Positions 33,923 through 35,251 of a stretch of 64,000 nucleotides of DNA are shown here, in pieces. Under the pieces are notes generated by a model. It did no database searches. It had not been told where the DNA came from and saw only the letters and a program-made list of their open reading frames with translations. The DNA comes from Rhizodiscina lignyota (taxonomy: Eukaryota), in the NCBI GenBank assembly GCA_010015805.1, contig ML978122.1, positions 1,460,453-1,524,452 on the forward strand, read 5' to 3'. The translations under genes were made by a program, and so were the position numbers. Each line of letters starts with the position of its first letter. The stretch's first letter is position 1.

Positions 33923-35251
33923 TTACATTACGCAGCGCTGAGACCTGTTCTCGCGACGGGTGCGGACGGCGCTGGCAAGGTCTCTGAGGACATTCTCGGT
34001 GGTTGGCCAGTCAATGCAAGCGTCAGTCACGCTCACGCCCTTCTTCAAGGCAGCAGGTCCCTCCTTGGGGATCTTCTGGTTGCCAGCGAACAAGTTCGAC
34101 TCGATCATAATTCCAGCAATGCCGTGCTCACCCCTGCGGACCTGATCCGCGACATCAGCGCACACAATTGGCTGGTTGTTATGATTTTTCTGGGAGTTTC
34201 CTGATTATGTCTCCTGTCAGCCATCCGACACCAAGTCAAGTGGTCCAGTGCGCAGCTTTGTGGGAAACGTACCGTGCGAGGCATCAATCATGACCTGAGG
34301 GCGCAGACCGGCCTTCTGCAGCTTTTCCATTGCCTCCTTAACATTCTTCTCGTCGTAGTTCGTACCCTTAGTGCCGCCACGAAGGATGACGAATCCGTCA
34401 GGATTGCCCGCAGTTTCAACGATAGACGCCATGCCTTGCTCAGTAACACCCATAAAGTGGTGAGACTTTGAAGCTGCTCCCATAGCATCGCATGCAACAC
34501 CGACGCTACCGTCAGTACCATTCTTGAAGCCAATTGGGAAAGAGAGACCAGAGGCAAGCTCGCGGTGAAGCTGAGACTCGGTCGTGCGAGCGCCGATAGC
34601 ACCGAGCGAGATCAGATCGGCCAGATACTGTGGTGACACGGTGTCCAGCATCTCACTAGCAATGGGCATACCCATGTTGGTGAGATCACAGAAGAGCTTG
34701 CGGGCGACAGTAAGACCACGGTTGATCTGATAGGTTTCGTTGAGCTCAGGGTCGTTGATCAAACCCTTCCAGCCGACAGTTGTTCGAGGCTTCTCGAGAT
34801 ATGCACGCATGATAACAACAAGGTCATCTTGCAGCTCGTCAGCTACCTTGACGAGCTTTTGGCAGTACTCGAGGGCTGCATCTGGGTCGTGCAGACTGCA
34901 CGGTCCAACGACTGCAATGATTTTGTCGCTGTTGCCGACGAGAGCATCGTGCGAGTCGTTCCGGCCTCGTGCGACGGTTGATATGCTGTTCAAGCTCTGT
35001 GCCATGGTGAGCGTCCCTCGACGTATAGTGCTTCCTGAGAACTTACAGCGGGAAGGTTGATCTTCAGAAGCTGAGGGGGGATAAGAGGCTGCTGCTCGAT
35101 GACTGCAACTCCCATATTAGCACCCATCCGTTCAAAATTGGAGTGTTGTCGAACCTCTGGTATCCTCATTAGGAGTGCGAACGCGAGGATGGCCTTCGGC
35201 CCAGCCAGGGGGAGGAGTCAAAGCTGGTGGAGTGTCGGCGACGTAAGGCAT
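33923..35251 (-). CDS. Class I-alpha DAHP synthase (ARO3/ARO4 family), 4 exons
   Basis: [93 protein letters not shown]. Confidence 0.96.

Follow-up and report, generated by a model that had tools for sequence, protein, structure and literature searches.

A cluster-linked DAHP synthase paralog of Rhizodiscina lignyota with glutamate at the feedback position of yeast Aro4

Can a fungal gene cluster hold its own entry enzyme to the shikimate pathway, one that may no longer respond to amino acid feedback? The question is raised by a 64,000-nucleotide stretch of contig ML978122.1 of Rhizodiscina lignyota (the whole stretch is hereafter the window), which encodes on its minus strand a 3-deoxy-D-arabino-heptulosonic acid 7-phosphate (DAHP) synthase with glutamate at the position equivalent to Lys229 of yeast Aro4. 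A preliminary description of this DNA had proposed a cluster paralog derived from the Tyr-type enzyme and released from feedback by the charge-reversing Lys-to-Glu change. The glutamate proves to be one of several substitutions in a fungal paralog lineage from which this Lys is absent throughout, and the gene adjoins a polyporic-acid-type synthetase gene; we lean toward lost or strongly weakened inhibition. We model the gene in four exons, with GT-AG borders at all introns, the reading frame kept and a product of 384 amino acids (aa):

35155..35251, minus strand: DAHP synthase exon 1, with the ATG at 35251-35249; the N-terminal ED.R[VI] motif aligns with clade and housekeeping proteins
35047..35102, minus strand: DAHP synthase exon 2, with GT..AG borders and the frame kept
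34273..34996, minus strand: DAHP synthase exon 3, 241 codons plus one base, carrying most of the barrel and the residues of the regulatory pocket
34439..34441, minus strand: Glu codon GAG, Glu237 in the 384-aa model, the equivalent of Aro4 Lys229 by gap-free alignment to 1hfb_A
34415..34420, minus strand: GTT GAA, Val244-Glu245 in the model, the equivalents of Aro4 T236 and position 237 in the alignment of clade versus housekeeping enzymes
33923..34200, minus strand: DAHP synthase exon 4, with the stop codon TAA; aligns to Aro4 284-367

The minus-strand codons from 34465 to 34430 read tct cac cac ttt atg ggt gtt act gag caa ggc atg and confirm the reading in the preliminary description, with GAG at 34439-34441. 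The best PDB match of exon 3 (phmmer, query 34270-34996, minus strand) is yeast Aro4 (1hfb_A; E 1.1e-100, 338.9 bits), and the two align without gaps from residue 47 to about residue 270. Counted along the alignment row 151-254, in which Aro4 reads HHFMGVTKHG, Glu stands opposite K229 and Gly opposite G226; the numbering given earlier is thus correct. A second PDB sequence, 1og0, is the same Aro4 protein with Ser at 226. The Gly226 equivalent that marks the Tyr type (Ser in the Phe type) is kept, as it is in 119 of the 120 sequences of our first survey (see below). Both Tyr-type cavity residues Lys229 and Thr236 are replaced, by Glu and Val, respectively. Position 237, which is K or R in housekeeping enzymes of filamentous fungi, is Glu245 here, a second charge reversal in the same beta-hairpin.

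The Glu site lies within a full-length DAHP synthase, as both the family profiles and the exon 4 alignment indicate, and a chance motif is ruled out. The protein matches PF00793 with 236 bits (Pfam cut-off 25.5), and exon 3 alone matches TIGR00034 with 380.6 bits (cut-off 173.2). It is colinear with Aro4 over residues 47-367 (47-283 in exon 3 and 284-367 in exon 4), and the barrel motifs, including TDAC, are identical; in DAHP synthases, such motifs hold the metal and phosphoenolpyruvate (PEP) ligands. By these comparisons the gene looks like a functional, intact type I-alpha DAHP synthase of the Aro4-like, Gly226 kind. A pseudogene is ruled out by the intact frame and by the conservation of the clade to which it belongs. 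The public model of the protein (P0001, 356 aa, 100% protein match) differs from ours only at the start. Its initial ATG falls inside intron 1 of the 384-aa model (35103-35251 region), and it lacks exon 1. Exon 1 is of consequence, since regulation in the DAHP synthase family involves the N-terminal segment.

How common is the substitution? Among the 120 best relatives, which we aligned as a first survey, 106 have Lys at the K229 site and 14 have other residues. In a FastTree phylogeny, 11 of those 14 group with the R. lignyota protein in one clade, all 11 members of which are without Lys. We then searched a profile of the clade (A1) against 5.8 billion proteins. The top of the result is formed by 18 clade sequence clusters (470–501 bits), seven of them new, and all seven again without Lys. 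The clade totals at this site are thus Glu in 11 clusters, Asn in four, Asp in two, Ser in one and Lys in none, although the 18 clusters are not independent and the counts trace to essentially one event on the clade stem. Fungal relatives outside the clade have Lys in 156 of 160 cases, with Arg, Asn, Thr and Gln once each and Glu in none (0/160). Judging from these alignments, Glu is not a housekeeping variant in fungi, and the possibility raised earlier that it might be common in housekeeping orthologs does not hold in that kingdom. Outside fungi, GVTE is also found in a few bacteria (3 of the 79 metagenome loci listed and 1 of the 71 genome loci with a recognisable motif).

The site has continued to change within the clade. 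We count five changes among Glu, Asn, Asp and Ser and none back to Lys, yet Glu-to-Lys and Asn-to-Lys are single-base steps. This pattern fits selection against Lys (‘not Lys’) rather than for one given residue.

Two further groups of sequences came up in the survey. The fungal Aro4-type enzymes outside the clade that lack the Lys are P0068, P0070, P0114 and P0300 (Arg, Asn and Thr, with Gln in Zalaria obscura), and the same adaptation may have arisen in them independently. P0121 (799 aa), P0122 (730 aa) and P0258 (629 aa) contain two complete tandem DAHP synthase domains, each with an S[VI][TS]K hairpin; they reflect either gene fusion or the merging of separate gene models. Among the bacterial type I-alpha enzymes (L081-L160 and L001-L080), a Ser226 equivalent goes with Lys229 (S[VI]TK), and Gly-type enzymes read GINQ, GIDD, GVTE and others. 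The fungal combination of Gly and Lys (GVTK) is unusual in the family, because bacterial Gly-types carry almost anything but Lys.

The loss of Lys229 does not stand by itself. The clade hairpin reads GVT[EDNS]QGLASIVET, versus GVTKQGLAAIT[KR]T in housekeeping enzymes, so that the clade has lost K229, carries A234S and T236V, and has turned from basic to acidic (Glu) at 237. Position 236 is Val or Ile in all 11 clade sequences versus Thr in 99 of the 109 others. L208V and F167Y are also diagnostic for the clade. At the N terminus, LG[YQ]D has given way to other residues in each of the five members that cover this segment. The Lys-to-Glu change of the preliminary description is therefore real, but it is not specific to this gene: it is one state of a clade-wide trait (Glu, Asn, Asp or Ser, never Lys) that comes together with T236V, A234S and K/R237E.

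Phylogenetic analysis places the enzyme among Aro4-type sequences of the Pezizomycotina, apart from the Aro3-like outgroup (ingroup support 97). We built this tree from 54 sequences in IQ-TREE with the LG+C20 model, using quick searches and support values from the Shimodaira–Hasegawa-like approximate likelihood ratio test (SH-aLRT) only. The clade has an SH-aLRT support of 100, or 99 after removal of 18 hairpin columns, and a long stem (0.48). It is sister (SH-aLRT 94) to housekeeping enzymes of Leotiomycetes and Sordariomycetes, and the 20 Dothideomycete housekeeping sequences branch elsewhere. An approximately unbiased (AU) test, for a grouping chosen after the tree had been seen, rejects joining the R. 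lignyota group with the Dothideomycete housekeeping sequences (p 0.0157). Usnea florida, a lichen of another fungal class, is in the clade and apart from the Lecanoromycete housekeeping sequences. On these trees the enzyme belongs to a distinct paralog lineage, other than the housekeeping ortholog, and its descent from a Tyr-type enzyme, as first proposed, is borne out by its position inside Pezizomycotina Aro4-type sequences with Gly226. Its spread would be due either to an ancient duplication or to transfer along with the cluster.

Two metagenome genes bear on its origin. L001 and L002 are fungal and Lys-type, their proteins are ∼75–78% identical to Dothideomycete enzymes, and both are interrupted just after SHG (at about 10723-10767 and about 10720-10768, respectively), which is the position of intron 3 here. 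The shared intron position agrees with the clade having arisen when a fungal gene was duplicated.

Does the gene neighbourhood agree with a dedicated supply enzyme? The following features surround the DAHP synthase gene:

35252..36161, no strand: divergent spacer of 910 bp between the DAHP synthase and NRPS-like (nonribosomal peptide synthetase-like) genes, with start codons on both sides; presumed shared promoter
36162..39114, plus strand: NRPS-like gene of adenylation-thiolation-thioesterase (A-T-TE) architecture, polyporic acid synthetase type (AMP-binding, PP-binding and Thioesterase; Pfam)
29724..30608, plus strand: prephenate dehydratase, main exon (Pfam, NCBIfam), with the C-terminal ACT regulatory domain kept
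27376..28799, minus strand: chorismate synthase in two exons, ATG at 28799 (Pfam, NCBIfam)
41288..42588, plus strand: zinc-type alcohol dehydrogenase/reductase, possible tailoring gene and candidate cluster member (Pfam, NCBIfam)
23580..26844, plus strand: Zn2Cys6 transcription factor, candidate cluster regulator (Zn_clus, Fungal_trans; Pfam)

The first exon of the NRPS-like gene extends to about 38567, and the remaining thioesterase domain lies in the open reading frame (ORF) 38656-39111. Its best named relative is AcyN of Ascocoryne sarcoides (P0367; 59% identity over 95% coverage), and most of its other close relatives are from lichen-forming fungi. The chorismate synthase and prephenate dehydratase genes lie head-to-head, 5–8 kb from the DAHP synthase gene and on its side away from the NRPS-like gene. 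The prephenate dehydratase aligns to the solved bacterial enzyme 2qmx up to residue 279 of 283 and reads HSRPS versus ESRPS in that enzyme. Zn2Cys6 regulators, more than one of them, are encoded near the cluster. The preliminary description had called the enzyme a cluster paralog, and this is upheld by the clade support, by the AU test and by the AcyN-like, chorismate synthase and prephenate dehydratase neighbours.

Polyporic acid synthetases dimerise phenylpyruvate (PMC12105029 and PMC9047271), and because of this the DAHP synthase, chorismate synthase and prephenate dehydratase together plausibly form a phenylpyruvate supply line. The predicted product, judged by the resemblance to AcyN and by the presence of a prephenate dehydratase in the cluster, is polyporic acid or a derivative. 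Elsewhere, two other clade members and AcyN-like matches come from the same source and from contigs of identical size (20,558 and 712,789 bp in ENA); among ten further AcyN-like sequence clusters we found no contigs of matching size beyond those two.

Other sequence features near the cluster are less readily placed. The spacer between the DAHP synthase and NRPS-like genes contains CGGNNCCG at 35504, 35748 and 35925, three occurrences in 910 bp versus 22 in the whole 64-kb window (a post hoc count), and a site of this type at 29214, in the spacer between the chorismate synthase and prephenate dehydratase genes, is the reverse complement of the 35504 site. Sites of this kind are typical of Zn2Cys6 factors. 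A k-mer comparison of the two spacers for common promoter words gave nothing above shuffled sequences. Among ORFs of at least 70 aa in the 18–33.9 and 38.4–44.5 kb regions, Pfam identified no chorismate mutase and no tailoring gene besides the zinc-dependent dehydrogenase. NCBIfam has no matches for the unassigned ORFs, and a protein atlas has none for ORF 31534-32082. The regions 30700-33900, 38600-41200 and 42600-44450 contain ORFs of 130–240 aa without a Pfam or NCBIfam match (e.g., 31102-32082 on the plus strand, 39716-40414, and 43108-44433 on the minus strand), which could represent tailoring genes missing from the annotation, or non-coding DNA. Downstream lie a CoA-ligase-type gene (succinyl-CoA ligase/ATP-citrate-lyase-like; 44553-46801, plus strand) and a Nup84/107 nucleoporin gene (49310-52566, plus strand), and these probably mark the cluster border.

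What would the altered hairpin do? In Aro4, regulation is abolished by K229L, T236R, Q166E, G193K, S195A and N-terminal changes (Hartmann 2003, as summarised in PMC9733642), and G226S switches the enzyme to Phe control (same source). Aro4 K229L is the standard feedback-resistant allele, and in Aro3 the inhibitor has two key contacts, of which the equivalent Lys is one (PMC10349828). Because changes at K229 and T236 abolish regulation in Aro4, the closest studied enzyme, and both positions are changed here, the weight falls toward deregulation, and we judge it rather probable that inhibition by Tyr or Phe is lost or strongly weakened in the R. lignyota enzyme. The enzyme would then probably keep running when amino acids are plentiful.

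We envisage the following course. The β6a/6b hairpin of the allosteric cavity would have been rebuilt in the lineage (Lys229 to Glu, Asn, Asp or Ser; Thr236 to Val; Lys/Arg237 to Glu), and the rebuilt cavity would bind Tyr or Phe poorly or not at all. The cluster enzyme would go on supplying DAHP even with the housekeeping isoenzymes switched off. Carbon would be pushed from PEP and erythrose-4-phosphate to phenylpyruvate by the DAHP synthase, chorismate synthase and prephenate dehydratase, and the neighbouring A-T-TE enzyme would dimerise the phenylpyruvate.

Several observations weigh against this account, and most of them bear on whether loss of the Lys suffices. Insensitivity here is argued from one yeast mutant, which has Leu, not Glu, at the site. 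In Aro3, where the homologous Lys lies in a homologous cavity, Phe inhibits the purified K222L enzyme as it does the wild type (PMC10349828); unlike the present enzyme, Aro3 is Ser-type and Phe-inhibited, and since its inhibition survives loss of the Lys, the Aro4 result can be carried over only within limits. The solved bacterial enzymes 6agm and 6agl resemble ours in having Gly at the 226 equivalent and a residue other than Lys at the 229 equivalent; unlike ours, they read GINQAG (Asn 228, Gln 229) and are named Tyr-sensitive by their depositors, so that a Lys-less pocket can stay regulated. Across 80 bacterial genome loci, Ser-type enzymes have Lys and Gly-type enzymes almost never do. Given Aro3 K222L, 6agm and the bacterial Gly-types, deregulation across the family neither requires loss of the Lys nor is secured by it. 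The rest of the cavity is unchanged in the R. lignyota enzyme (equivalents of D161, T162, P165, Q166, G193, S195 and G226), and the N-terminal extension is present; a site no longer in use could well have drifted further, although these cavity residues are also near the active site. The remaining points concern the lineage and the cluster: the grouping in the AU test was post hoc; co-location elsewhere rests on the two pairs from contigs of equal size and on two published clusters; and a metagenome scan with the clade alignment gave no clade member among the matches listed, of which 2 of 80 were fungal-like, both of them Lys-type housekeeping enzymes.

These observations are what one would expect if the paralog were still inhibited by Tyr, Phe or Trp, with a pocket reshaped around Val236 (as in the Phe type) and Glu229, binding through Gln166, Ser195 and the backbone, and with flux raised only by extra, co-regulated expression. 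Such an enzyme would have precedents in Aro3 K222L, which is fully Phe-sensitive in vitro, and in Tyr-sensitive 6agm with its Gln. The clade-wide conservation of the other cavity residues and of the N-terminal extension would also be accounted for, and the acy paper (PMC9047271) explains its cluster DAHP synthase by co-expression alone. We nevertheless consider continued inhibition unlikely, if worth taking seriously: K229L and T236R each abolish regulation in Aro4 (PMC9733642), Lys was never regained over five changes at the site, a second acidic residue stands at 237, and a negative side chain at the inhibitor's charged head group should disfavour binding. The remodelling might instead have retuned the allosteric site to another effector, a pathway intermediate or the cluster product, with an acidic pocket arising from the double Lys-to-Glu change. 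The cavity is indeed remodelled rather than degraded, the four coordinated hairpin changes are kept clade-wide, and Glu outnumbers every other residue at the site (11 of 18). We regard retuning as improbable, since the site varies among Glu, Asn, Asp and Ser, unlike a specific new contact, and no ligand is pointed to by the data; PhzC, the bacterial analogue, is likewise insensitive to its own pathway products (PMC6435475). Least probable by far is that this is an ordinary housekeeping Tyr-type enzyme with a neutral, lineage-specific Glu and a coincidental neighbourhood. Our analysis of this genome covers the window, and further copies of the DAHP synthase, chorismate synthase and prephenate dehydratase elsewhere in it are presumed, which counts in favour of that idea and against ours. 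Glu is absent from all 160 relatives outside the clade, however, the clade is long-stemmed and removed from the 20 Dothideomycete housekeeping sequences, and three genes of the shikimate and phenylalanine pathways lie beside the AcyN-like synthetase gene within 11 kb. Taken as a whole, we favour, with some reserve, a non-housekeeping paralog beside a polyporic-acid-type synthetase, in which the hairpin has been rebuilt and feedback lost.

How does this enzyme compare with systems already described? Bacteria are well known to have unregulated DAHP synthases encoded in clusters, and DAHP synthases linked to clusters have been published in fungi; for both reasons, the idea is unsurprising in principle. 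Cluster-embedded fungal DAHP synthases beside polyporic acid synthetases, in particular, are already described in PMC9047271 and PMC12105029. In A. sarcoides, a DAHP synthase (gene 6106) is co-expressed with acyN and a transcription factor and was read in 2022 as precursor supply (PMC9047271), and in the allantofuranone cluster the DAHP synthase gene alfS lies beside the polyporic acid synthetase gene alfA (PMC12105029). In R. lignyota, as in the acy and alf clusters, a DAHP synthase with a proposed role in precursor supply adjoins a polyporic acid synthetase, and a Zn-finger regulator is encoded near them. Unlike R. lignyota, which has both, those clusters are not reported with a chorismate synthase or prephenate dehydratase; the words ‘chorismate’ and ‘prephenate’ occur 0 times each in the texts of the two papers. 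Feedback residues are not discussed in either text (‘feedback’ occurs 0 times in one and twice in the other, in a general sentence and a reference title). The likeness to the acy and alf DAHP synthases is one of gene context.

A parallel in bacteria is PhzC (PA1901) of the Pseudomonas aeruginosa phenazine cluster, likewise a cluster-encoded extra DAHP synthase for secondary metabolism, which is insensitive to Trp, Tyr and Phe (PMC6435475). Unlike the R. lignyota enzyme, PhzC is type II, not type I-alpha, and owes its insensitivity to missing helices and a different oligomer, not to point changes in a retained pocket. Among yeast enzymes, the closest counterpart is Saccharomyces cerevisiae Aro4 (1hfb, 1of6), of the same family and Gly226 subtype, colinear over 47-367, in which the changed residue is the site engineered in K229L. 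Unlike Aro4 K229L, our enzyme has Glu rather than Leu, together with T236V, A234S, K/R237E and N-terminal changes. In open-access papers and preprints, we found neither an account of fungal cluster DAHP synthases that naturally carry another residue at K229 nor one of an NRPS-like cluster in fungi that holds both chorismate synthase and prephenate dehydratase genes; a review (PMC10464499) has no mention of AroG or Aro4.

More broadly, the evidence is about evenly balanced on whether this is an old Aro4-type paralog lineage that spans fungal classes, travels with polyporic-acid-type clusters and, with its charge-reversed hairpin, serves as a natural, constitutively active entry to the shikimate pathway, joined in R. 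lignyota into a three-enzyme phenylpyruvate module. If the enzyme is truly insensitive, it would be a ready natural alternative to engineered Aro4 K229L for making aromatics in yeast and filamentous fungi. The clade as a whole would be a panel of natural solutions (Glu, Asn, Asp and Ser, with the hairpin changes) with which to examine how allosteric control is turned off in type I-alpha enzymes. The motif GVT[EDNS]QGLASIVET could mark supply paralogs versus housekeeping DAHP synthases, and the same hairpin could flag clusters for phenylpyruvate-derived terphenylquinones or pulvinic-acid-type compounds, many of them apparently in lichen-forming fungi.

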